Shown piece after piece: positions 1 through 12,050 of a stretch of 36,551 nucleotides of DNA. The stretch is from Escherichia coli. GTDB lineage: Bacteria; Pseudomonadota; Gammaproteobacteria; Enterobacterales; Enterobacteriaceae. Made by a program: the position numbers and the translations under genes. Every line of letters begins with the position of its first letter. The first letter of the stretch is position 1. The notes under the pieces are model-generated. The model was not told where the DNA came from, made no database searches, and saw only the letters and a program-made list of their open reading frames with translations. The stretch lies in the NCBI RefSeq assembly GCF_003334765.1, contig NZ_QOWT01000037.1. The stretch is one strand, 5' to 3'.

Positions 1-928
1 TAAGCGTAACCGACAGGTTCTCCTTCATACCATATTAAATTTTTCCAGGTATTGCCGCTGCCTTATTTCGTCCCATAAAGGAAAACTCATCTGGGTTTCT
101 GACAAATACGCGAAACTCACAGCCCCTCAATATCAACCACACGTTGTAAGCCGGTAATACCTGAAAATCAGCCTATTACCGCCCACGCCTCCGGCACCAT
201 TCCCTTTTGATTTCGAATTCTTTGTTGTCGCTATACCGCTTAATGTTCCCGGTCCTCCGGTGCAGATAACACCGGACTTATCGTAGCGCTGGCTAAAAGT
301 TCAGGTGACCAGAAGGAAGCAGGAACACGATCGTAAAGTTTGCGGTCAGTTCCGTCAGTCGGTGGGCAACCGCAGAGTTACGGGCTTCCAGGTCCACAGG
401 AGTGAGTCTATAACGCGTGTGAAAAATCATTTTTTCTGGCGTTGACAGAACACATTACAGGCTGCCACTTACCCGGTGTCCCGCAATACAGCCTTAGTGT
501 TCCGTTATCGGGGATCCGGACGCACCGCAACAACCGGGGAAGTATTTCTGGTTTAGAGCTGTGTCAAGAGGGATTTCTCAGCCCCTCACTCACCGGCTCA
601 GTCTCAGAGCAGGAGCATTAATACGCTCAGTTCATGTCTTATACAGGAATGGGCACAGGGGGAGCTGGCGTGTCACTGCTGATTTTACGCATCAGCGTTC
701 ATGTATTTGCACTCTGATACATGAACGATTCACAGCGCTCTGTTACCGGAGAGATTTACTCTCTTAGCTTACTCTGGCAAATCCTTTACGTTACTCTCTG
801 ATGACTTCTTATATTTATAATACCAATCAGACAGCCTTATCCCATCGGTGATACCGAAGCCGGTCTGCGCGCCGGCTGACCCGTCATCGTTAAACTATCA
901 TTCACCGATTTTCTGTGAGGATTTTATC

Positions 929-1297
929 GTGTCAGACACACTTTCCGGGACAACGCATCCCGATGACAATGACGACCATCCCTGGTGGGGACTACCCTGC
1001 ACAGTGACGCCCTGTTTCGGCGCCCGTCTGGTGCAGGAGGGTAACCGCCTGCATTACCTTGCCGACCGCGCCGGTATCAGAGGCCTGTTCAGCGATGCAG
1101 ATGCGTACCACCTGGACCAGGCCTTTCCGCTGCTGATGAAACAACTGGAACTCATGCTCACCAGCGGTGAACTGAATCCCCGCCATCAGCATACCGTCAC
1201 GCTGTATGCAAAAGGTCTGACCTGCAAAGCTGACACTCTCGGTAGCGGTGGTTACGTTTATCTGGCTGTTTATCCGACGCCCGAAACGAAAAAGTAA
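929..1297 (+). CDS. CbeA/YeeU/YfjZ-family antitoxin of a type IV toxin-antitoxin pair
   Basis: ORF 848..1297 translation contains [37 protein letters not shown]..., typical of the YeeU/CbeA family (about 122 aa). In-frame GTG at 929 gives VSDTLSGTT... and a 122-aa product; the ATG at 848 would add a 27-aa extension. Paralog cannot be assigned. Confidence 0.8.
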
Positions 1298-1386
1298 ACC
1301 ACCGGAATAACCTTCTGCTCCGGCCTGGTGCTTTCACCACGCCACTTTTCCATTTTTCATCTCTGCATATCAGGAAAACCTTCAGT

Positions 1387-1761
1387 ATGAAAACATTACC
1401 CGATACACACGTACGGGAGGCATCGAGCTGCCCGTCTCCCGTCACCATCTGGCAGACTCTGCTCTCCCGACTACTGGGCCAGCATTACGGCCTTACACTG
1501 AATGACACACCGTTCGCCGATGAACGTGTGATTGAGCAGCATATTGAAGCTGGCATTTCACTGTGTGATGCGGTGAATTTTCTCGTGGAAAAATACGCGC
1601 TGGTGCGTACCGACCAGCCGGGATTCAGCACTTGTCCCCGCTCTCAGTTAATAAACAGTATTGATATCCTCCGGGCTCGCAGGGCGACCGGCCTGATGAC
1701 CCGCGACAATTACAGAACGGTAAATAACATTACCCTGGGTAAGCATCCGGAGAAACGATGA
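1387..1761 (+). CDS. CbtA/YeeV/YpjF/YkfI-family toxin (cytoskeleton-targeting, inhibits FtsZ/MreB)
   Basis: 124-aa [11 protein letters not shown]...[52 protein letters not shown]... matches the CbtA toxin family as recalled; sits directly downstream of the antitoxin gene. Confidence 0.85.
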
Positions 1762-2246
1762 AACTTTCCCTGATGCTGGAAGCCGACAGAATTAATGTGC
1801 AGGCACTGAACATGGGGCGAATTGTCGTTGACGTCGATGGTGTTAATCTCACTGAACTGATTAACAAGGTCGCTGAAAACGGTTATTCACTCCGCGTGGT
1901 GGAGGAATCCGACCAACAGTCAACCTGCACACTACCACCGTTTGCAACCCTTGCCGGCATACGCTGCAGTACCGCACATATCACGGAAAAGGATAACGCC
2001 TGGCTGTACTCGCTGTCGCATCAGACCAGTGACGTTGGTGAATCAGAATGGATTCATTTCACAGGTAGCGGATATCTGTTACGTACCGATGCGTGGTCAT
2101 ATCCGGTTCTGCGGCTTAAACGCCTGGGGCTGTCAAAAACGTTCCGTCGTCTGGTTATCACACTTACCCGACGTTATGGCGTCAGTCTCATTCATCTGGA
2201 TGCCAGCGCTGAATGCCTGCCGGGTTTACCCACTTTCAACTGGTAA
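1758..2246 (+). CDS. YeeW-like cryptic-prophage protein
   Basis: 162-aa ORF whose start overlaps the toxin stop (ATGA at 1758-1761); position and sequence are consistent with the yeeW-type gene that follows cbtA in CP4-like elements. Confidence 0.6.
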
Positions 2247-2257
2247 CCAGGAACAAC

Positions 2258-2455
2258 ATGAAATCATTAACCACGGAAACCGCACTGGATATTCTGATTG
2301 CGTGGCTGCAGGACAATATCGACTGCGAATCGGGAATTATCTTTGACAACAATGAGGATAAAACGGATTCAGCAGCACTGTTGCCCTGTATCGAACAGGC
2401 CAGAGAGGATATCCGTACCCTGCGCCAACTGCAGCTTCAGCACCAGAACCGGTGA
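2258..2455 (+). CDS. small hypothetical prophage-associated protein (65 aa)
   Basis: ATG at 2258 preceded by aggaac; product MKSLTTETALDILIAWLQDNIDCESG...; the longer ORF-track start at 2213 overlaps the upstream gene. Family not assigned. Confidence 0.4.
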   Translation: MKSLTTETALDILIAWLQDNIDCESGIIFDNNEDKTDSAALLPCIEQAREDIRTLRQLQLQHQNR

Positions 2456-2932
2456 GTCTTACTCACCAGACTTCATTCCACTGACGCCAGCCTGAACAGG
2501 GCTGGCATTTTCATTTATCTGCAAAAAGGAATATCGATTATGTCTGATATCACAGCCTACCGTCCGGAAGTGGTCAACGAGAATACGGACGTTATCTGCT
2601 CAACCAGCATCCGCCGCATTCTGGCTGTACGAAAGAGTTCACTGCTGCAAATCGACACAATTATCCGGCATCAAGTGAGCGATATCAGTTAACAGATATA
2701 GATGGAGAAGATGCTTTTATCCGGATTGGTTCTATCGCGATGGTGCGAGTACTACTTGATGCAATGAAGCCTGTCGAGGAAGATGACGAGTAACAGAGCT
2801 CGGTATCTCAATCAGGAGCTGATTGTCCTGGTTCGATGCCGAAAACCAGTGATTTTTCGTGTTGGTATCTGTGTTGGTATAAGATGATATTGTTTATTAT
2901 TAACAATTTTAAATCATGAGGTTAAGTCACAT

Positions 2933-2970
2933 GTTTGAGTCCGGCCTTCGCACCTTCGCACCTTCGCACC
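2933..2970. repeat. tRNA-Leu (leuX) 3'-end-like segment followed by 3 tandem copies of cttcgcac; probable island att remnant
   Basis: tttGAGTCCGGCCTTCGCACC resembles the T-arm/acceptor end of tRNA-Leu(CAA) as I recall it (GGTTCGAGTCCGGCCTTCGGCACCA); the 8-mer cttcgcac repeats at 2946-2953, 2954-2961 and 2962-2969. Confidence 0.5.
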
Positions 2971-3172
2971 ATCGGAACATCAATAGACATCAACGGACGT
3001 TTTTTTATGACTGAAATCCGCGCCACACAAGGCTTTTCGCTATTTTTCGCTCAACCTAAGTCAACCTACATCAACTTACTGATGTGGATACAGCTACAGC
3101 TGCGGCTATACCCCGATTCGATAATGTTTGTACCCACACAAAACCCTTGAAAGGCTACAAGGCTGAAATTGT

Positions 3173-3657
3173 CTAAACCATAGAGATGATTTTTATGATC
3201 CAGTCTTTCTCTTGTTGAGATAGTTCCAGTTTGCTCACTCGTGTTAAGAAGGTATTGATCACCTGAACATCCGAATTGGTGAGCCTATTTAATAGAGCGG
3301 GTGGTATACCTTTACTAACAATCGCTTTGCGGTGACTTTCGTAGTTTTTATTACTCATTGTTGATCCTAAAAAATCATTGTATGGCGGCATTGATCGTTT
3401 CCAGCAACCTTTACTTACTCACTTCGAACTGCATCCTCGTAGACAGTTCCACTACAATAATCGAAAAGGCGCGGATGTCCATTCAGGTATCCCGCTAATA
3501 CGTATAGCAATAACAATGGCTTATGCGGCGCGCGCTGTTCACCCTTGTGCCAGATTTTTATATTGGCAATTGCCTGCTGTAGCGATTTACTGGAAGCTAT
3601 TGATATCCCTGGCAGTGAAATAATTGCGATCATGCTCGCAAATTTTCTGCTGTTCAA
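3173..3657 (-). pseudogene. frameshifted gene of unknown function
   Basis: Two same-strand ORFs (3415..3657 and 3173..3391). The downstream frame is open from 3418, immediately after the upstream stop at 3415-3417, so a single frameshift in the ttacttactc tract would fuse them into a protein of about 160 aa. Confidence 0.35.
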
Positions 3658-3736
3658 GCCTGCAAGTGAAGATATATTACCTTGATCTCATTTGTTTTTT
3701 TGCTGCCTGTTCTGAGAACGTATAAGGACATTCTCC

Positions 3737-4387
3737 ATGAATAAACTCCCTGATCATCTTCCGCGGCGGTATATCATCGAAGCTATCCATTTATGGGATG
3801 CGGGAGAAACTCATCAGTTCCAGCCTGCGCGGTTGTATGAGATTGAATATCATGGCCGACGTTACCCCTCGAAGGCGATTGCTGGCATCGCAGCGACATT
3901 GATGACGGGGACGCAATTTACCCCTGCGGATTTCACCGGCGGAATAAAATCTAAATGTGTCAAGCTACTCATAGAGCAGGGATTTCATATTCATCTGGAT
4001 AAAGCCGCTGCGGCTCCCATAGCCGACGTTCTGTTCCCGGATGAGTTGCCGTCGCAGGAGACATACCTTGAAGGTGCGGCGATAAAGGTGACAGTAAACC
4101 GCTATGAACGCGATAAAAAGGCCCGAGATAAAGCGGTCGAACATCATGGATGCCAGTGCAACGTATGCGGTGTTGATCTGGTGAAGATCTATGGTGATAT
4201 CGCTGAAGGCTTTATCCATGTGCATCACCTGGTGCCGCTGTCAGCCATTAAAGAGGATTACCAGCTGGATCCAGTTAATGATTTGCTGCCTGTGTACCCT
4301 AATTGCCATGCGATGTTGCACCGACGCAAACCACCGTTTACGCCGGGGCAGTTAAAAGCGCTGATGGATGCGAATAAATCAAATTAA
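3737..4387 (+). CDS. HNH endonuclease, McrA-like C-terminal nuclease domain with an unassigned ~100-aa N-terminal domain
   Basis: 216-aa ORF; the C-terminus has HHGCQCNVCG...IHVHHLVPLS...YPNCHAMLH, a classic HNH (beta-beta-alpha-Me) motif resembling the McrA nuclease domain. aggaca lies upstream of the ATG. Confidence 0.7.
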   Translation: MNKLPDHLPRRYIIEAIHLWDAGETHQFQPARLYEIEYHGRRYPSKAIAGIAATLMTGTQFTPADFTGGIKSKCVKLLIEQGFHIHLDKAAAAPIADVLFPDELPSQETYLEGAAIKVTVNRYERDKKARDKAVEHHGCQCNVCGVDLVKIYGDIAEGFIHVHHLVPLSAIKEDYQLDPVNDLLPVYPNCHAMLHRRKPPFTPGQLKALMDANKSN

Positions 4388-4394
4388 TGAACGC

Positions 4395-5375
4395 TCACCT
4401 TTCGCGCCAAAACTGCAAAATTGCTTCTACAAACTTGTCAGAAATAATCCCCCGACGGGCTGCCGTGCTGAAATGACTGCTTCGCAGTGCCGTCGTCCAG
4501 TTCTCCGGTGACCGGTACGCTGAACCGTAATATCCCGTGCTTAAATCGTCCGGGTCTTCATCAGGCGCGTTCGTCAGTCCTCTTTCACCTTGTTGCTGGA
4601 AGTCGACGAAAATAATATTGGCTAAAACATTATTTTGATAATTGCCATAAATAACTTCATACGCATGAGGGAAATTTTCTTTCCAGTACCAGGTGGTATC
4701 GCCGCAAAACCACGGTGCGTCAGTAATATTATTAAGCTGAGAATGGTATTGTTTTAGATCCCTACGAAAGGCTTCAACCATATGATTAAAGTGTTGAGGG
4801 TGTGACGCGTAGTCACTGGTCATTAAGTCAAATTCGCCTTGCATCCAGCATACGCCGAGGAATTTGTTATGCGGATTTTTTGCCAGTGCGGCTCGCGTTC
4901 TGCTGACTAAATCCTGGTATAGCGGAGTATCCGTTCCCCAACGACAAGCATCATGGCTGGCTCCGTGCCGTTCTGAATATGTCCCTTCGCTGCCCGCGGT
5001 AAAAGCCGATCCGCCACGGCAACACGGAACGATGAGAACCCCTGCATTATCAGGAATAAAGGGCAGTAATTTCCGTGCTATATGCAGTGCCTGGCCAACG
5101 GTGCCGTACTGTGTTTGATGATTCGTTGCCAGAGGATGGTGATAACCCTGCATATCCTGAACATCGTGTGGGCAGTGAGTCAGTGGAATAATGTCGTTAA
5201 AGTGACATGACGGGCCTCCGGGATGCGTATGCGCAAATCTCGCTAATTGTTTAATTCTGGGATGAGGCGCATCTTCCCTGTCCGGTAATGGCAGTCCTTC
5301 GCCATACGCCATGGCATTAGACTGACCAGCAACGGTAAGAATATAGTAATAATCAGGCGATATTATTGCGTTCAT
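4395..5375 (-). CDS. nanS: 9-O-acetyl-N-acetylneuraminate esterase
   Basis: ORF 4395..5402 matches NanS/YjhS; start placed at the internal ATG (MNAIISPDYYYILTVAGQSNA...) for a 326-aa product. Confidence 0.9.
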   Translation of the reverse strand: MNAIISPDYYYILTVAGQSNAMAYGEGLPLPDREDAPHPRIKQLARFAHTHPGGPSCHFNDIIPLTHCPHDVQDMQGYHHPLATNHQTQYGTVGQALHIARKLLPFIPDNAGVLIVPCCRGGSAFTAGSEGTYSERHGASHDACRWGTDTPLYQDLVSRTRAALAKNPHNKFLGVCWMQGEFDLMTSDYASHPQHFNHMVEAFRRDLKQYHSQLNNITDAPWFCGDTTWYWKENFPHAYEVIYGNYQNNVLANIIFVDFQQQGERGLTNAPDEDPDDLSTGYYGSAYRSPENWTTALRSSHFSTAARRGIISDKFVEAILQFWRER

Positions 5376-5439
5376 ATAAATTTCGCGTAATTGAAATGAC
5401 AAATTGATAGCAGGGCCCCTTTACCGGGGCCCTGAAGCG

Positions 5440-6546
5440 TTAGTTTTGTACTGTGACTTTATTATCCTTCACAGAAATTAAAACTGAATCCATCACTGCT
5501 TTGCCGCCTGCAGTTTCACCGCCAATAATTAATAAACTATTATTCCAGGGCAATGATACTCCGTAGGCCCGACCTTGCGATAATTCACCCGATTTATCCC
5601 ATTTCCCGTTATACCAAAGATGAATATCAGCGCTATATGATTTTTTCAGGCCTTCATGCGCATAGTTCTTACCGTTCTGGTAATTTTCTCGTGAACCTTT
5701 GAATCCGGCCCCTCCAGCAAATATAAGAGAATCATTGCTTATCCCCGCAAAACCGCCAGCGACGCCATCTGGTGATGAGACGGGATCAAGCTTATTCCAT
5801 TTTAAATTATCACCGGTGAAGTCAAGTTCAAATACGGCATCCGTTCGCAATCCTGGTTTGGCTTCGCCATTAATAAGCCAGGTTTTATCACCTTTATTCA
5901 CAACCGCCGCACCAGCCGTTCCGTACCAGGGAGATTCGCCAGCGTAACTCCATTGCTGTGTTGAGGGATCAAAAGACAACAGAAACTTATTGAAGAAATA
6001 ATCTTCTGCTTTTTTGTCAAAATAGTAGGCGTTGATTTTATCTATAGCGGTTGAATCTTTTCCAGCTTCGTTGAGATCTTCAAAATAGCCATTGAAGATA
6101 TTCTGGTTAACACCGCCAGTAACATAAGCCTTGCCGTTGTGTACAAAAGTCACATGGCCCGCCATGCCCATCGGCGCGTGCGACATCAATTTAACCCAGC
6201 TATTGGTTTTGGGGTTGTATTTGTGTACGTCATTAAATACCTGAGTCAAGCCCTCGCTGTTTTTGCCAATGCCGCCAAACACATACAGATTGCCATCAAT
6301 AAATGCAGAGGTTGCTTGATCTCTCGGTCCGCCAGGGAATGCAGCTAACGCTGTCCATCTTTTATCTTTGGCCTGTGTATCCAGCTTGTACCATGCCGTA
6401 CCTGCGCTACCTAAACCAATGTAGACAGTGTCGTTATCAATTGCTCCGGTACCACTTTTAAATGGCACAGGAGTTTCCGGTAATACAGACGCGTTTGCGG
6501 CAAATGAAGCCATTATGATAGTAAGCGCCGTTATTGTTTTATTCAT
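5440..6546 (-). CDS. nanM: N-acetylneuraminate mutarotase (Kelch-repeat periplasmic protein)
   Basis: ORF 5440..6654 matches NanM/YjhT; start placed at MNKTITALTIIMASFAANA (signal peptide) for 368 aa. Confidence 0.9.
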   Translation of the reverse strand: MNKTITALTIIMASFAANASVLPETPVPFKSGTGAIDNDTVYIGLGSAGTAWYKLDTQAKDKRWTALAAFPGGPRDQATSAFIDGNLYVFGGIGKNSEGLTQVFNDVHKYNPKTNSWVKLMSHAPMGMAGHVTFVHNGKAYVTGGVNQNIFNGYFEDLNEAGKDSTAIDKINAYYFDKKAEDYFFNKFLLSFDPSTQQWSYAGESPWYGTAGAAVVNKGDKTWLINGEAKPGLRTDAVFELDFTGDNLKWNKLDPVSSPDGVAGGFAGISNDSLIFAGGAGFKGSRENYQNGKNYAHEGLKKSYSADIHLWYNGKWDKSGELSQGRAYGVSLPWNNSLLIIGGETAGGKAVMDSVLISVKDNKVTVQN

Positions 6547-6565
6547 TGTGACTGTCTCCTGTCTA

Positions 6566-7282
6566 CTACAGTTTAAATGACACACCAATGCGATAACTGT
6601 TTTCCGATAAATTATCTCTGCCGTTGTAAACACCCTGACGGTCAAGGTAGTCATATTCTATGTATGGCGTAATATCGGGCGTCATATGGTATTGTAGAAC
6701 AAATGCATTTTCCGTCGCCCATTTCTTATGGTTTGCATAGCGATAATCGTTCTGTTTACTGTATAGCGTCGTTTGCCATGCGAAGGTGAAATCACTATTA
6801 ATATGGTAAGTGACATATCCATCCCAACGATGAACGTTATCACGAGACATATCACCAGATAAGTCTTGTTGTCGGTAAGCTTTCCAGTCGTAACGATAGC
6901 GAATGCCAAAATTAAGATCTTTTGTCGCGTCCCAGGACAGTTTTACGTAGGGTCCGTAGCGTGTGCCATTGCTGCTAAAATGCGTTAACATTCCCGGGCG
7001 CACCGTCCATTGATCATCAAGTTTAATCGCGTAATTAACTTCAACCTGAACATCATTGAGTGCGGCATTTTCCTTTTTATTATCATGAATGGTATTCCAG
7101 GTATTACTTTCCATGCTTGCCCACCATCCATTTTGCCATCCCTCACTGACTTTGAGTCGAGTCTCATAGGCGTGGCTTCCACTACGATATCCACCACGTA
7201 CGTCCAGTGTCGCAGCCTGAGAAATTAATGGGGACGAAAAGCACAGTAATAATACGCTAGAAAGTATTTTAGCCTTTTTCAT
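6566..7282 (-). CDS. nanC: N-acetylneuraminic acid outer-membrane channel (KdgM family)
   Basis: ORF 6566..7291 matches NanC/YjhA (MKKAKILSSVLLLCFSSPLISQAATLDVRGGYRSG...); ATG at 7282 chosen, GTG at 7291 is an alternative. Confidence 0.9.
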   Translation of the reverse strand: MKKAKILSSVLLLCFSSPLISQAATLDVRGGYRSGSHAYETRLKVSEGWQNGWWASMESNTWNTIHDNKKENAALNDVQVEVNYAIKLDDQWTVRPGMLTHFSSNGTRYGPYVKLSWDATKDLNFGIRYRYDWKAYRQQDLSGDMSRDNVHRWDGYVTYHINSDFTFAWQTTLYSKQNDYRYANHKKWATENAFVLQYHMTPDITPYIEYDYLDRQGVYNGRDNLSENSYRIGVSFKL

Positions 7283-7707
7283 AAATTTCACTCATTTGTA
7301 GGATACAGAAAGCAATACAAAGCCCGCATAAACAATTAGCATTTATGTTGTGTAATATTTTTTTGCCAGACTTATAGTGTCTTTGGCAACCGGTAGCTGT
7401 ATTTTATATTTTTTGTATAATATCTCCTGTGAAAAATCTCTTTCCACATTATTTAAATAAACAGAGGGCCAGATTAAATACCTGAGTATAAAATCTCTGC
7501 TGATGTTTAATTGATTTGAATTTTCGTAAGCTATATCGCTTACTCAATCCATTTTACCCAGAGTCATAAAATAGAGTGTCTGTTGATCTCATTTTCATAT
7601 TCCTTTCAGACTGAAGTGCGTTTTCATCACCCGATGAGAAAGAACTGAAGTGATGTTTGCCATAGATTACGAGATGCCCAGTCTCATTGACTATCGCGGT
7701 GCACCTT

Positions 7708-7722
7708 TATACCTGTTATACC
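7708..7722. promoter_or_regulatory. NanR operator (GGTATA repeats) with adjacent Dam GATC site
   Basis: tatacctgttatacc is the reverse complement of GGTATAACAGGTATA; GATC follows at 7724-7727. It lies about 420 bp upstream of nanC and about 1 kb upstream of fimB, matching the known NanR site controlling nanC and fimB. Confidence 0.7.
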
Positions 7723-8735
7723 AGATCAAAAATCACGCAATCCATACAACAAAACCAGATTTGCAATTCGTGTCACAAAATATGTCGATCTTTTCCTAAG
7801 AAGCAGATGCCATGTGAAGACAGACGAACACTTGCATTGGTCTTCAAAAACTAAAGGTTTTCTTTTAACAATCTGTTTTGTAAATAATTTATTTAGAATC
7901 TAAACAAAGAAAGCTTTGCAAGCTAACTCAGTGAGCTTGGTGAAAATAAGTGTTTACCCGCCATCAGGCTGAGTATAATTCTCATCATGAAATATGTTTC
8001 TTGGTTTGTGGCTTGTAACTGGTCACTCCTGATGTCGATCTGGAGAGGCTTGTTGATGTTGGTGTTTTCAGGATGATGTTTCACTTAGTTTGTTTGCCGT
8101 ATCGCCCGGCGAATAGCTGTGATTGAGGAAGGTTTAAGTCGTAGTGACCAAAGCCATAGTTACCAACGGATGTAGATGAAAAAGCGTCGCCTGCGTTCCC
8201 CCATATCTCCAGGATAAAAGGGAATGTAACAATCTCATGGCCTAAGCTGACGAACCAGGCAGGAATAATCGCTAGGGATCTAAGAATTAGCATGATAATA
8301 GCCACTAAAAAATTACTGCGTTCCATGAAATAGCCATTTTGTGGCAAATGCAGTTGACTAATAATGTCATATGTGAGACGGCTAGTTGAACGAATATTAA
8401 ATTTTGCTGAATTTTTTATGTTGATTTTACTTGTTACAGAACATATCACATGATATATAGATAAGATTAGTTGCATTAATGATGAGGGTTATTATTCGAT
8501 TCGTATCAGATTTATAAATATATAAAGGTACATAGCATGCAAGAGCATGGCGTTTGTATGGCAAAGTTATTATAAGTAACTATCGCTACTCCATTTAAGT
8601 TCACTCAGAAGAACTGGTCCACTTACGTTAGTTATTAAGCAAACGTTCGCTTTTATAAACATAATCAGGATTAAAATGTTGGATTATTGCTAACCCAGCA
8701 CAGCTAGTGCGCGTCTGTAATTATAAGGGAAAACG

Positions 8736-9338
8736 ATGAAGAATAAGGCTGATAACAAAAAAAGGAACTTCCTGACCCATAGTGAAATCGAATCACTCCT
8801 TAAAGCAGCAAATACCGGGCCTCATGCAGCACGTAATTATTGTCTGACTTTGCTTTGTTTTATTCATGGTTTCCGGGCGAGTGAAATTTGTCGATTGAGG
8901 ATTTCGGATATTGATCTTAAGGCAAAGTGTATCTATATCCATCGATTAAAAAAAGGCTTTTCAACAACGCACCCGCTATTGAACAAAGAAGTTCAGGCTT
9001 TAAAAAACTGGTTGAGTATCCGTACTTCGTACCCGCATGCTGAGAGCGAATGGGTATTTTTATCGCGTAAGGGGAATCCGCTTTCTCGGCAACAGTTTTA
9101 CCATATTATCTCGACTTCCGGTGGTAATGCCGGGTTGTCACTGGAGATTCATCCGCACATGTTACGCCATTCGTGTGGTTTTGCTTTGGCGAATATGGGA
9201 ATAGATACGCGACTTATCCAGGATTATCTTGGGCATCGCAATATTCGTCATACTGTCTGGTATACCGCCAGCAATGCAGGGCGTTTTTACGGCATCTGGG
9301 ATAGGGCCAGAGGACGACAGCGTCACGCTGTTTTATAG
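8736..9338 (+). CDS. fimB: type 1 fimbriae switch recombinase FimB (tyrosine recombinase, ON<->OFF)
   Basis: 200-aa ORF MKNKADNKKRNFLTHSEIESLLKAANTG... with C-terminal RHSCGF...LGHRNIRHTVWYT recombinase motifs. Confidence 0.95.
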   Translation: MKNKADNKKRNFLTHSEIESLLKAANTGPHAARNYCLTLLCFIHGFRASEICRLRISDIDLKAKCIYIHRLKKGFSTTHPLLNKEVQALKNWLSIRTSYPHAESEWVFLSRKGNPLSRQQFYHIISTSGGNAGLSLEIHPHMLRHSCGFALANMGIDTRLIQDYLGHRNIRHTVWYTASNAGRFYGIWDRARGRQRHAVL

Positions 9339-9814
9339 AGATAGTTGAGATACCAGGGATGGTGTTAAAAACTACATTATTCTTACGATATATCAAAAAT
9401 GATTAACCATTTATTAATTGATGTTATTGTAAGTGTGATTCTTAATTATAATAATAAACATTAAGTTAACCATATCCATACAAAATACAATGGTTTATGT
9501 TCTTCAAAATAAATAAACAAAATCATTCATAAATTTACACATCACTTAAATTCATCTGTTTTCACATTTTTTCTTTATTTTTTAAGCAACTGGAAGTTAA
9601 TCCACTGCAATCTATTGTTATATTGAATCAAATCAATGAAAATAGATGTTATCACATCAGTGATATTTTATTTTTGTATGATATTTAATGTAATTGACTG
9701 ATAGCCACATCACTTCGTGTGTGGTTATCTTTTTATCTATTGGGCTAATTTTGACCGATTGAGGTTTCCTATAGGTATTCATTCAAATATATCTCAGTCA
9801 GGAGTACTACTATT

Positions 9815-10411
9815 GTGAGTAAACGTCGTTATCTTACCGGTAAAGAAGTTCAGGCCATGATGCAGGCGGTTTGTTACGGGGCAACGGGAGCCAGAGATTA
9901 TTGTCTTATTCTGTTGGCATATCGGCATGGGATGCGTATTAGTGAACTGCTTGATCTGCATTATCAGGACCTTGACCTTAATGAAGGTCGAATAAATATT
10001 CGCCGACTGAAGAACGGATTTTCTACCGTTCACCCGTTACGTTTTGATGAGCGTGAAGCCGTGGAACGCTGGACCCAGGAACGTGCTAACTGGAAAGGCG
10101 CTGACCGGACCGACGCTATATTTATTTCTCGCCGCGGGAGTCGGCTTTCTCGCCAGCAGGCCTATCGCATTATTCGCGATGCCGGTATTGAAGCTGGAAC
10201 CGTAACGCAGACTCATCCTCATATGTTAAGGCATGCTTGCGGTTATGAACTGGCGGAGCGTGGTGCAGATACCCGTTTAATTCAGGATTATCTCGGGCAT
10301 CGAAATATTCGCCATACTGTGCGTTATACCGCCAGTAATGCTGCTCGTTTTGCCGGATTATGGGAAAGAAATAATCTTATAAACGAAAAATTAAAAAGAG
10401 AAGAGGTTTAA
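9815..10411 (+). CDS. fimE: type 1 fimbriae switch recombinase FimE (ON->OFF biased)
   Basis: 198-aa ORF (V)SKRRYLTGKEVQAMMQAV... with GTG start at 9815; paralogous to FimB. Confidence 0.95.
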   Translation: MSKRRYLTGKEVQAMMQAVCYGATGARDYCLILLAYRHGMRISELLDLHYQDLDLNEGRINIRRLKNGFSTVHPLRFDEREAVERWTQERANWKGADRTDAIFISRRGSRLSRQQAYRIIRDAGIEAGTVTQTHPHMLRHACGYELAERGADTRLIQDYLGHRNIRHTVRYTASNAARFAGLWERNNLINEKLKREEV

Positions 10412-10458
10412 TTTAACTTATTGATAGTAAAGGTAAAAAACAAATAAATACAAGACAA

Positions 10459-10772
10459 TTGGGGCCAAAACTGTCCATATCATAAATAAGTTACGTATTT
10501 TTCTCAAGCATAAAAATATTATAAAACGACAAAAAGCATCTAACTGTTTGATATGTAAATCATTTCTCTTGTAAATTAATTTCACATCACCTCCGCTAAA
10601 TGTAAAGCTAACGTTTCTGTGTCTCGAAGCAACTTCCTCATTCTTCTCTCCAAAAACCACCTCATGCAATATAAAAATCTATAAATAAAGATAACAATAG
10701 AATATAAAGCCAACAAATAAACTGAAAAAGTTTGTGCGCGATGCTTTCCTCTATGAGTCAAAATGGCCCCAA
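10459..10772. promoter_or_regulatory. fimS: fimS invertible phase-variation element (314 bp) flanked by 9-bp inverted repeats; phase-OFF as sequenced
   Basis: TTGGGGCCA at 10459-10467 and its reverse complement TGGCCCCAA at 10764-10772 lie exactly 314 bp apart, between fimE and fimA. Confidence 0.85.
10479..10507 (-). promoter_or_regulatory. fimA sigma-70 promoter inside fimS, oriented toward fimE
   Basis: On the minus strand: -35 TTGAGA (10507-10502), 17-bp spacer, -10 TATGAT (10484-10479), next to the fimE-proximal inverted repeat. No comparable promoter is seen on the plus strand near the fimA-proximal repeat. Confidence 0.6.
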
Positions 10773-10891
10773 ATGTTTCATCTTTTGGGGGGAAACTGTG
10801 CAGTGTTGGCAGTCAAACTCGTTGACAAAACAAAGTGTACGGAACGACTGCCCATGTCGATTTAGAAATAGTTTTTTGAAAGGAAAGCAGT

Positions 10892-11446
10892 ATGAAAATT
10901 AAAACTCTGGCAATTGTTGTTCTGTCGGCTCTGTCCCTGAGTTCTACAGCGGCTCTGGCTGAAACTACACCCACGACGGTAAATGGTGGGACCGTTCACT
11001 TTAAAGGGGAAGTTGTTAACGCCGCTTGCGCAGTTGATGCAGGCTCTGTTGATCAAACCGTTCAGTTGGGCCAGGTTCGTACCGCTAGTCTGAAGCAGAC
11101 TGGAGCAACCAGCTCTGCTGTCGGTTTTAACATTCAGCTGAATGATTGCGATACCAGTGTTGCCACAAAAGCCGCTGTTGCCTTCTTGGGGACTGCGATT
11201 GACAGTGCTCATCCTAAAGTACTGGCTCTGCAGAGTTCAGCTGCGGGTAGCGCAACAAATGTTGGTGTGCAGATACTGGACAGAACAGGAAATGAGCTGA
11301 CGCTGGACGGTGCGACATTTAGTGCACAAACAACCCTGAATAACGGTACCAACACCATTCCGTTCCAGGCGCGTTATTATGCAATCGGCGAGGCAACCCC
11401 GGGTGCTGCTAATGCGGATGCGACCTTCAAGGTTCAGTATCAATAA
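10892..11446 (+). CDS. fimA: type 1 fimbrial major subunit (pilin)
   Basis: 184-aa ORF with signal peptide [23 protein letters not shown] and C-terminal ...ATFKVQYQ; aggaaag upstream. Confidence 0.95.
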
Positions 11447-11510
11447 CCTACCCAGGTTCAGGGACGTCATTACGGGCAGAGATGCCCACCCTTGTGCGAT
11501 AAAAATAACG

Positions 11511-12050
11511 ATGAAAAGGAAGAGATTATTTCTATTAGCGTCGTTGCTGCCAATGTTTGCTCTGGCCGGAAATAAATGGAACACCACGCTGCCCGGCGGA
11601 AATATGCAATTTCAGGGCGTCATTATTGCGGAAACTTGCCGGATTGAAGCCGGTGATAAACAAATGACGGTCAATATGGGGCAAATCAGCAGTAACCGGT
11701 TTCATGCGGTAGGGGAAGATAGCGCACCGGTGCCTTTTGTTATTCATTTACGGGAATGTAGCACGGTGGTGAGTGAACGTGTGGGTGTGGCGTTTCACGG
11801 TGTCGCGGATGGTAAAAATCCAGATGTGCTTTCCGTGGGAGAGGGGCCAGGGATAGCCACCAATATTGGCGTAGCGTTGTTTGATGATGAAGGAAACCTC
11901 GTACCGATTAATCGTCCTCCAGCAAACTGGAAACGGCTTTACTCAGGCTCTACTTCGCTACATTTCATCGCCAAATATCGTGCTACCGGGCGTCGGGTTA
12001 CTGGCGGCATCGCCAATGCCCAGGCCTGGTTCTCTTTAACCTATCAGTAA
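11511..12050 (+). CDS. fimI: type 1 fimbrial protein FimI
   Basis: ORF 11379..12050; start placed at ATG 11511 ([19 protein letters not shown]...) for 179 aa; the longer ORF would overlap the fimA 3' end. Confidence 0.85.

Follow-up and report, generated by a model that had tools for sequence, protein, structure and literature searches.

An intact four-gene CbeA/CbtA toxin-antitoxin block that very likely ends a leuX genomic island shortened by deletion in Escherichia coli

The window, the whole 36,551-nt stretch of Escherichia coli DNA analysed here (RefSeq contig NZ_QOWT01000037.1), carries at positions 929-2455 four genes, all intact and all on one strand, as called from its open reading frame list. 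Their order is a cbeA (yeeU)-type antitoxin gene, a cbtA (yeeV)-type toxin gene, a full-length yeeW-like DUF5983 gene and a DUF957/Aec78 gene. All four encoded proteins are 100% identical to RefSeq proteins annotated by PGAP. The features of the locus are listed below, with the evidence for each in parentheses.

1-851, no strand: island DNA left of a deletion joint (matches strain 2014C-4135 at 100% identity as far as the breakpoint)
851-853, no strand: deletion joint, with a 2-bp TA microhomology at 852-853 (alignment to the intact island)
852-928, plus strand: remnant leader, 77 of the native 162 nt, including a Shine-Dalgarno sequence at 917-921 (alignment to the GE3 intact arm and K-12 CP4-44)
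929-1297, plus strand: YeeU/CbeA-family type IV antitoxin, 122 aa, GTG start (Pfam, PDB, RefSeq WP_001315620.1)
1298-1386, plus strand: antitoxin-toxin spacer, 89 nt, typical of the CP4-44 subtype (conserved among Escherichia alleles)
1387-1761, plus strand: CbtA-family toxin, 124 aa (PF06755, RefSeq WP_000854753.1)
1758-2246, plus strand: YeeW-like DUF5983 protein, full-length, 162 aa (PF25638 and PF19419)
2258-2455, plus strand: DUF957/Aec78 small protein, 65 aa (PGAP WP_000839281.1, own ATG and AGGA)
2486-2516, plus strand: terminator-like GC-rich hairpin with a T-rich tail, 31 nt past the DUF957 stop (consensus scan, a pattern match only)
2540-2689, plus strand: DUF4942 stub, 50 codons (PGAP pseudogene annotation; DUF4942 follows DUF957 in intact blocks)
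2936-3019, plus strand: attR-like repeat of the 3' end of leuX and of its downstream sequence (aligned locally with leuX of K-12 and the flank 3' of it)

Within the island DNA left of the joint, the minus strand also holds a frameshifted Hha/YmoA-like gene (approximately 293-476) that is intact in relatives at 93% identity.

An initial annotation had read the locus as an antitoxin-toxin-yeeW-like trio plus a small ORF, and this is borne out by the Pfam matches, by identity to the K-12 proteins (92% for the antitoxin, 88% for the toxin) and by the PGAP/RefSeq identities. Similarity to the CbeA and CbtA families is far beyond chance: the antitoxin matches CbeA_antitoxin (PF06154) with E 5.6e-53 over model positions 1-100 of 101, and the toxin matches CbtA_toxin (PF06755) with E 1.1e-61, covering all of the model (positions 1-112 of 112). 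The antitoxin also aligns over residues 1-121 with the YeeU structure PDB 2h28 (E 3.7e-76), and with the further YeeU/YfjZ structures 2inw (E 2.2e-74), 2jn7 and 2ea9 (both approximately 5e-40). The toxin gene lies directly downstream on the same strand. Other collections contributed little: no NCBIfam model matched the cassette proteins, their PGAP names coming from Pfam; no family of the PADLOC-DB defence models matched any of the four at E <= 0.01; their only PHROGs matches were to weak families of unknown function; and neither Rfam nor tRNA scanning, run across the entire window, gave a match. The CbeA/CbtA family is well studied, and RefSeq already contained the four proteins, annotated, from hundreds of E. 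coli genomes.

The island of strain 2014C-4135, near-identical and at the same locus, is the reference against which the deletion is defined. The window aligns to this intact island from 1 to 853 and again from 852 onward, at reference positions 14,424 bp apart, with flank identities of 100% to the left and 99.94% to the right of the breakpoint. The initial annotation had not seen yeeS/yeeT-like genes in 1-928, and the ORF list and annotation agree; comparison of the flanks with leuX islands explains their absence, since a single 14,424-bp deletion with 2-bp microhomology took them out. The span lost runs from an AlpA-like HTH gene through Ag43 to DUF987 and includes 85 nt of the leader, so that 77 nt of native upstream sequence is left before the antitoxin. 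The same joint is found in 8 of 5,426 complete E. coli genomes, and additionally in SHP24, where an IS2 lies beside it. Deletion mediated by an insertion sequence was considered and rejected: the SHP24 IS2 is flanked by a 5-bp target duplication of its own, next to a pre-existing joint, and was therefore inserted later.

The joint also bears on where the antitoxin begins. A 27-aa N-terminal extension from an ATG at 848 had been suggested, and the reading frame is indeed open from there, which would give a 149-aa protein containing MIPKPVCAPADPSSLNYH. The codon at 848, however, is GTG rather than ATG and has no preceding Shine-Dalgarno sequence, while the GTG at 929 has GAGGA (917-921) 7 nt upstream. 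Codon 848 falls in the sequence to the left of the deletion, 1-4 nt from the joint, and intact islands do not have it upstream of the antitoxin. The residue equivalent to 929 is the first one both in K-12 CbeA and in the YeeU that was crystallised, and the Pfam domain begins at residue 18 of the 122-aa form. On the intact-arm alignment, the deletion joint, the YeeU structure start and the start-codon context we reject the longer protein as extremely improbable, and retain the 122-aa form.

A consequence of the deletion could be loss of transcription. The K-12 transcription unit is listed as yeeRST-cbeA-cbtA-yeeW (PMC7660256), Wen et al. considered the upstream genes part of the same operon and reported low mRNA levels, and a consensus scan of 500-929 gave no plus-strand sigma-70-like site; given that operon and the blank scan, the deletion may have left the cassette promoterless. 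The cassette would then be a transcriptionally silent relic with no activity in this strain, its operon promoter deleted and its ORFs preserved solely by the recency of the deletion, and the 100% and 99.94% flank identities to the intact island imply that there has been no time for decay. Against this, a perfect TATAAT lies on the plus strand at 816-821, albeit with no -35 element, the strong Shine-Dalgarno sequence and start codon of the antitoxin are kept, and the joint persists in nine genomes. The consensus promoter scan is moreover crude: it is blank in the intact arm as in the window, and so cannot settle expression. A silent relic is a real possibility, though we lean against it; we infer toxicity, neutralisation and expression for the window allele. 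The strains bearing the joint, BS74R-D and H3 among them, are possible natural constructs for asking whether cbeA-cbtA has its own promoter.

By homology with K-12, the 124-aa toxin, which retains F65, would bind FtsZ and possibly MreB, blocking division and elongation. CbtA binds both FtsZ and MreB, the substitutions F65S and R15C split these two activities, and CbtA, YkfI and YpjF all require F65 to bind FtsZ (PMC5624674). F65 is invariant in 10 aligned homologues. Position 15 is C in the window toxin, as opposed to R in K-12 CbtA, and is R, C or H among homologues; thus R15, an MreB-binding determinant of K-12 CbtA that does not define the family, is missing, and membership of the CbtA family is unaffected. 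R15C abolishes MreB binding by K-12 CbtA, whereas YkfI and YpjF naturally have C15 and YpjF binds MreB nonetheless (PMC5624674), which leaves dual targeting by the window toxin uncertain. By analogy with the K-12 substitution, this natural C15 CbtA allele may be an FtsZ-only toxin.

The 122-aa antitoxin, again by K-12 homology, would be of type IV, stabilising and bundling FtsZ and MreB polymers with no sequestration of the toxin. CbeA bundles FtsZ and MreB rather than binding the toxin, according to the summary of Masuda 2012 in PMC5624674, and the K-12 antitoxins cross-neutralise each other's toxins (PMC5371832). Its 92% identity to K-12 CbeA suggests that the window antitoxin neutralises by the FtsZ/MreB route. 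The cbeA-cbtA spacer is 88 nt in K-12, whose two remaining pairs have spacers of 20 nt (PMC5371832); the 89-nt spacer of the window shows no significant RNA structure (z = -1.6).

Downstream, the DUF5983 start ATG overlaps the toxin stop (ATGA), and translation of DUF5983 would be coupled to the toxin by this overlap. Its protein matches two profiles, PF25638 at the N-terminus (E 1.2e-28) and PF19419 at the C-terminus (E 3e-21), and the C-terminal domain is without a known fold. DUF957, a family since dropped from Pfam, whose current library has no model for it, lies in an 80-aa ORF (2213-2455) whose real start, from PGAP and an alignment of homologues, is the ATG at 2258 with AGGA 5 nt upstream; its translation would start independently, 11 nt past the DUF5983 stop. 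There are 341 DUF957 homologues, named DUF957 or Aec78 at source, and the position downstream of DUF5983 is kept in 10 loci. The toxin, DUF5983 and DUF957 are all under purifying selection, the accessory genes as strongly as the toxin (for DUF957, dN/dS 0.07-0.19, Fisher p 5e-5 to 6e-11).

DUF957 is probably the AntiFam entry ANF00264 of a 2026 preprint, a putative equivalence, and for that entry a frameshift has been raised (bioRxiv 10.64898/2026.06.09.728211). In the window, a programmed -1 frameshift at G_GGT_TTA (2222-2228) would fuse DUF5983 and DUF957 into one protein of 232 aa. The site is a canonical zero-frame slippery heptamer, the sole one in the four genes; it falls within a 34-nt overlap with the open -1 frame, and databases contain a few fused DUF5983-DUF957 proteins. 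Over 10 homologous loci, however, DUF957 lies in the -1 frame of DUF5983 at some and in the +1 frame at others, half of them (E. albertii, L014, Citrobacter, Yokenella and Edwardsiella) have lost the heptamer, and the spacer between the two genes ranges from 11 to 31 nt, with no frame overlap in the distant genera. The database fusions prove to be singletons made through the +1 frame at differing points, as sequencing errors or mutations predict, and DUF957 possesses its own ATG and AGGA. The 10-locus comparison and inspection of the fused proteins lead us to reject the frameshift as a conserved mechanism and to consider it most unlikely in the window; judged by its alignments and substitution pattern, DUF957/Aec78 is a real gene under selection that has a start of its own and is not produced by frameshifting.

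Distant relatives of the DUF5983 C-terminal domain occur with neither CbtA nor CbeA, beside DUF932, ArdC, LPD29, DUF4942 and the relaxase, TraM and TraY genes of conjugative elements. The upstream neighbours DUF3085, DUF1281 and LPD29 were considered as hidden CbtA relatives and rejected, showing no similarity. To judge from these neighbourhoods DUF5983 is a non-obligate partner of CbtA, which bears on surveys that score DUF5983 as a candidate antitoxin. Selection equal to that on the toxin, the coupling, the lack of a known fold and the conjugative neighbourhoods lend some support to a tentative reading that we consider rather unlikely: DUF5983 and DUF957 may be functional components of a gene set for mobile-element establishment or anti-defence in which CbeA/CbtA is embedded.

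The cassette had been read as closing a CP4-like, leuX-associated island arm, directly upstream of nanS/fim. The arm does end next to nanS/fim, but approximately 1.9 kb intervene (2456-4394), containing the DUF4942 stub, an HTH stub, the leuX 3'-end copy, a restriction-endonuclease stub and a gene for a 216-aa HNH endonuclease. The association with leuX is upheld by the repeated leuX 3' end, which lies 480 bp past the cassette, and by a tRNA-Leu gene and a site-specific integrase gene approximately 28 kb upstream in BS74R-D, a genome of 99.97% identity, the proximal end falling outside the window. The attR-like copy holds CCTTCGCA repeated 3.8 times (tandem repeat at 2945-2974); as judged from the alignment, the copy at 2936-3019 is the right boundary of the island. 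In intact islands the block reads DUF932, antirestriction, RadC/JAB, DUF987, CbeA, CbtA, DUF5983, DUF957, DUF4942, and this nine-gene order is kept in E. albertii, Citrobacter, Yokenella and Edwardsiella. The window retains the last four genes before DUF4942 together with the DUF4942 stub; the rest lie within the 14,424-bp deletion. Positions 929-2455 are thus, very likely, the intact terminal four-gene block of a leuX CP4/P4-type island of the CP4-44 subtype, its upstream partners lost by deletion.

As a discovery the cassette itself carries little weight. The by-products are an account of island decay at base level, the status of DUF957 as a gene and the non-obligate pairing of DUF5983 with CbtA. 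A 14.4-kb illegitimate deletion stripped Ag43 and the antirestriction, RadC and DUF987 genes from a leuX island, and spared its toxin-antitoxin tail.

Among the K-12 paralogues, a check for which had been proposed, the closest pair is that of CP4-44 (CbeA 91.8% and CbtA 87.9% identical to the window proteins). Resemblance to the arrangement in CP4-44, CP4-57 and CP4-6 together had been claimed; it holds for the gene order of CP4-44, but a yeeW-like gene is present in CP4-44 only. The CP4-44 CbeA/CbtA-YeeW set shares with the window its gene order and orientation, the GTG antitoxin start, a spacer of 88-89 nt, the overlap of toxin stop and yeeW start, and F65. It differs in that the YeeW-like protein, 162 aa in the window, is a 64-aa remnant in K-12; that DUF957, intact in the window, is a fragment in K-12 (tblastn, residues 36-65); and that the toxin has R15 in place of C15, residues 6-11 of the N-terminus differing as well. 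The island sites differ too, the window lying at leuX by nanS/fim and not at the CP4-44 site, and the yeeR/S/T equivalents are deleted in the window.

The other two K-12 pairs, YafW/YkfI (CP4-6) and YfjZ/YpjF (CP4-57), belong to the same two Pfam families, with C15 toxins and cross-neutralising antitoxins, and likewise close a P4-like element with the antitoxin gene followed by the toxin gene. They are more distant from the window (61-67% identity), with shorter proteins (105 and 109-113 aa), a 20-nt spacer and no DUF5983 or DUF957 genes downstream. Also close are the intact leuX islands of 2014C-4135, GE3 and O26/O103 STEC, in which the cassette proteins are identical, the flanking DNA is 99.94-100% identical, and the same locus ends at the HNH endonuclease gene, nanS and fim. 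Unlike the window, these islands keep the 14.4 kb: an HTH gene, YfjI, a GTPase, Ag43, a YeeR-like gene, IrmA, DUF905, DUF932, antirestriction, RadC/JAB and DUF987.

The right end of the island carries a toxin-antitoxin cassette that is an already annotated member of a well-characterized family. The initial annotation had read four ORFs here, and all four were found in place on the plus strand:

929-1297, plus strand: antitoxin, 122 aa (Pfam CbeA_antitoxin, E 5.6e-53)
1387-1761, plus strand: toxin, 124 aa (Pfam CbtA_toxin, full length, E 1.1e-61)
1758-2246, plus strand: YeeW-like protein, 162 aa (both DUF5983 domains, E 1e-28 and 3e-21)
2213-2455, plus strand: small ORF, 80 aa (without a family in the current Pfam library)

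None of the four proteins has an NCBIfam model. PGAP starts the small ORF at ATG 2258 (65 aa, 'DUF957 domain-containing protein'), and its homologues carry the names DUF957 or Aec78. In a megablast search of 5,426 complete E. coli genomes, eight records were 100% identical to window 1-3000 over the full length; there the four proteins have the RefSeq identifiers WP_001315620.1, WP_000854753.1, WP_000777547.1 and WP_000839281.1.

Start contexts were inspected. GAGGA lies 7 nt before the antitoxin GTG at 929, and AGGA 5 nt before the DUF957 ATG at 2258. The ATG of DUF5983, which shares the sequence ATGA with the toxin stop, is preceded by GGAG at a distance of 5 nt; for the toxin start, AGGA is 12 nt away, a poor spacing. 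No Shine-Dalgarno sequence precedes GTG 848 or ATG 2213. The initial annotation's observation and interpretation of the cassette are upheld, apart from a 27-aa N-terminal extension of the antitoxin from an 'ATG at 848'. That codon reads GTG and lacks a Shine-Dalgarno sequence; it lies in the left flank of a deletion (described below), and so cannot be part of the conserved antitoxin.

In an alignment with K-12, window 2936-3019 corresponds to the 3' end of leuX (its last ~20 nt) and the sequence that follows it, with 3.8 copies of the octamer CCTTCGCA inside the tRNA-derived part. This leuX copy forms the island's right boundary. Strain BS74R-D, 99.97% identical to the window over 15 kb, has a tRNA-Leu gene and integrase ~28 kb upstream of the cassette, with fec genes and IS debris between. 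The leuX-end copy and the BS74R-D tRNA-Leu and integrase together put the cassette within a leuX island, ~480 bp short of its right end. A leuX-associated island beside nanS and fim had been proposed correctly, but the cassette is not directly upstream of nanS, since two features intervene between the island end and that gene:

3451-3600, minus strand: stub of a restriction endonuclease binding phosphorothioated DNA
3737-4387, plus strand: intact HNH endonuclease, 216 aa

In PADLOC the HNH protein has weak matches among type IV methyl-directed restriction enzymes (E 1e-4), and only short remnants of this endonuclease stretch are left in K-12. nanS itself (4395-5375, minus strand) has an unbroken reading frame, whose product shares 318 of 326 residues with K-12 NanS. 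Identical DNA is flagged by PGAP as an incomplete pseudogene in BS74R-D and in the two intact-island references, GE3 and 2014C-4135, and a 29-aa hypothetical protein is called opposite nanS, over its 3' end.

The absence of yeeT/yeeS-like partners upstream of the antitoxin, a puzzle in the initial annotation, is explained by a deletion mapped against 2014C-4135. In GE3 and many O26 and O103 strains identity to the window begins abruptly at 852, and upstream of this point GE3-type islands carry Ag43, YeeR-like, IrmA, DUF905, DUF932, antirestriction, JAB/RadC and DUF987 genes. Window 1-851 matches, at 100% identity, DNA that lies further left in the island of 2014C-4135; that strain has the whole island at the same locus, ending in an identical cassette followed by nanS and fim. 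The window aligns to that genome in two blocks, 1-853 at 100% and 852-12000 at 99.94%, which lie 14,424 bp apart there and have a 2-bp TA in common at the joint. The upstream partners are missing because this 14,424-bp deletion removed them; lost were AlpA-like HTH, hypothetical, YfjI and GTPase genes along with all those listed for GE3-type islands. Of the 162-nt antitoxin leader 85 nt went with the deletion, leaving 77 nt of native upstream sequence.

A junction-spanning query found the joint in 8 of the 5,426 genomes, and strain SHP24 is a ninth with the same joint. Its IS2, inserted 5 bp left of the joint (1943-3273 of the SHP24 locus, L024), is flanked by a CATCG target duplication beside the existing joint, and so came after the deletion. 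An IS66-like element truncates the SHP24 left flank at the position matching window 406. Window 293-476 (minus strand) holds a frameshifted Hha/YmoA-family gene, for which PGAP calls a 45-aa hypothetical protein (293-430) while C-terminal Hha-like residues run on in another frame; 93%-identical relatives have an intact 58-aa gene.

A scan of one genome per species yielded 12 homologous loci. E. albertii, Citrobacter, Yokenella and Edwardsiella share one gene order (DUF932, antirestriction, JAB/RadC, DUF987, antitoxin, toxin, DUF5983, DUF957, DUF4942), with protein identities of 64-77% in the distant genera. The window retains four of these genes, antitoxin to DUF957, and a 50-codon DUF4942 stub. 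Against the homologous loci, dN/dS (Nei-Gojobori) was 0.12-0.19 for the toxin, 0.14-0.20 for DUF5983 and 0.07-0.19 for DUF957, whose synonymous excess is significant (Fisher p 5e-5 to 6e-11). Yokenella regensburgei (L017) has two tandem CbtA-like ORFs (1652-1972 and 2127-2492 of its locus) behind one antitoxin gene, 46% and 66% identical to the window toxin. The cassette also appears in contigs of assemblies labelled Collinsella and Lachnospiraceae (both metagenome-assembled genomes) and Arthrobacter (loci L011, L012, L014, L015, L020 and L021); their DUF5983 and DUF957 proteins are 83-100% identical to the window's, and the contigs are probably E. coli DNA that was mis-binned or came in as contamination.

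AntiFam ANF00264 is described as always adjoining DUF5983 beside cbtA/cbeA, and a programmed frameshift has been proposed (preprint, 2026, 10.64898/2026.06.09.728211). By its position and missing Pfam family, ANF00264 would be the former DUF957. The DUF957 frame in the window is -1 relative to DUF5983 and open from 2213, and G_GGT_TTA (2222-2228) is the only in-frame X_XXY_YYZ heptamer within the four genes. Among 10 homologous loci the frame is -1 in some and +1 in others, and five have lost the heptamer. The DUF5983-DUF957 spacer is 11-31 nt, with frames lacking any overlap in distant genera, and fused DUF5983-DUF957 database proteins are singletons, joined via the +1 frame from different points. 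The variable frame, lost heptamer and singleton +1-frame fusions rule out a programmed frameshift as a conserved mechanism, and with the spacer they identify DUF957 as an independently started gene.

Among 1.84 billion proteins the small DUF5983 family forms 218 clusters at 50% identity. Its AlphaFold2 model, from a 28-sequence alignment, has a mean pLDDT of 81.7, and >90 for residues ~65-162. Neighbourhoods were inspected for seven distant relatives of the C-terminal domain (34-45% identity); none of CbtA, CbeA or DUF957 was near the informative ones. These relatives adjoin DUF932, LPD29, ArdC, DUF1281, DUF3085, DUF4942, relaxase/TraI, TraM/TraY or IncFII RepA, often with a 4-nt overlap with the upstream gene. 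Because distant relatives sit in such mobile-element neighbourhoods, the yeeW-like gene appears to belong with the genes that serve the transfer and establishment of mobile elements, and not to be tied obligatorily to a toxin-antitoxin pair; K-12 toxin-antitoxin pairs also work without it. At loci L026-L034 C-terminal DUF5983 domains stand alone, at ~100 aa.

The K-12 operon is listed as yeeRST-cbeA-cbtA-yeeW (PMC7660256). A consensus scan found no plus-strand promoter-like site in 500-929, nor in the intact arm, and placed a terminator-like hairpin downstream of DUF957 (2486-2506). A perfect TATAAT at 816-821 (plus strand) precedes the joint by 31 nt and the antitoxin start by 108 nt; it has no recognizable -35 element and could give chance transcription into the cassette.

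K-12 CbtA binds FtsZ at its H6/H7 loop and MreB at its flat face; FtsZ binding is lost with the F65S change and MreB binding with R15C, and CbtA carrying both changes is non-toxic (PMC5624674). CbeA, according to Masuda 2012 as cited in PMC5624674, does not bind the toxin; instead, it attaches to polymers of FtsZ and MreB and bundles them. By analogy, the window toxin may act on FtsZ and MreB like K-12 CbtA. It keeps F65 and has C at position 15, where homologues have R, C or H. C15 is natural in YkfI and YpjF, and YpjF nonetheless binds MreB (PMC5624674), so the window allele may or may not target MreB.

The solved structure of YeeU, 2h28, aligns with residues 1-121 of the antitoxin (E 3.7e-76); the structure-database comparison gave no solved relatives for the toxin, DUF5983 or DUF957. 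Antitoxin residue 107 (window 1247-1249) is Gly, as against Cys in K-12 CbeA, YafW, YfjZ and other aligned alleles (GSGGY in the window, GSCGY in others, SSCDY in K-12 CbeA). Aligned to the three K-12 systems, the antitoxin is 91.8% identical to CbeA (CP4-44), 67% to YfjZ (CP4-57) and 62% to YafW (CP4-6), and the toxin 87.9% to CbtA, 65% to YpjF and 61% to YkfI, respectively, making the CP4-44 pair the closest paralogue. K-12 cbeA also starts with GTG, and the antitoxin-toxin spacer is 89 nt in the window and 88 nt in CP4-44, unlike the 20 nt of the CP4-57 and CP4-6 pairs (PMC5371832). K-12 YeeW, in contrast, is a 64-aa remnant, 71% identical to the N-terminal domain of the window's full-length protein.
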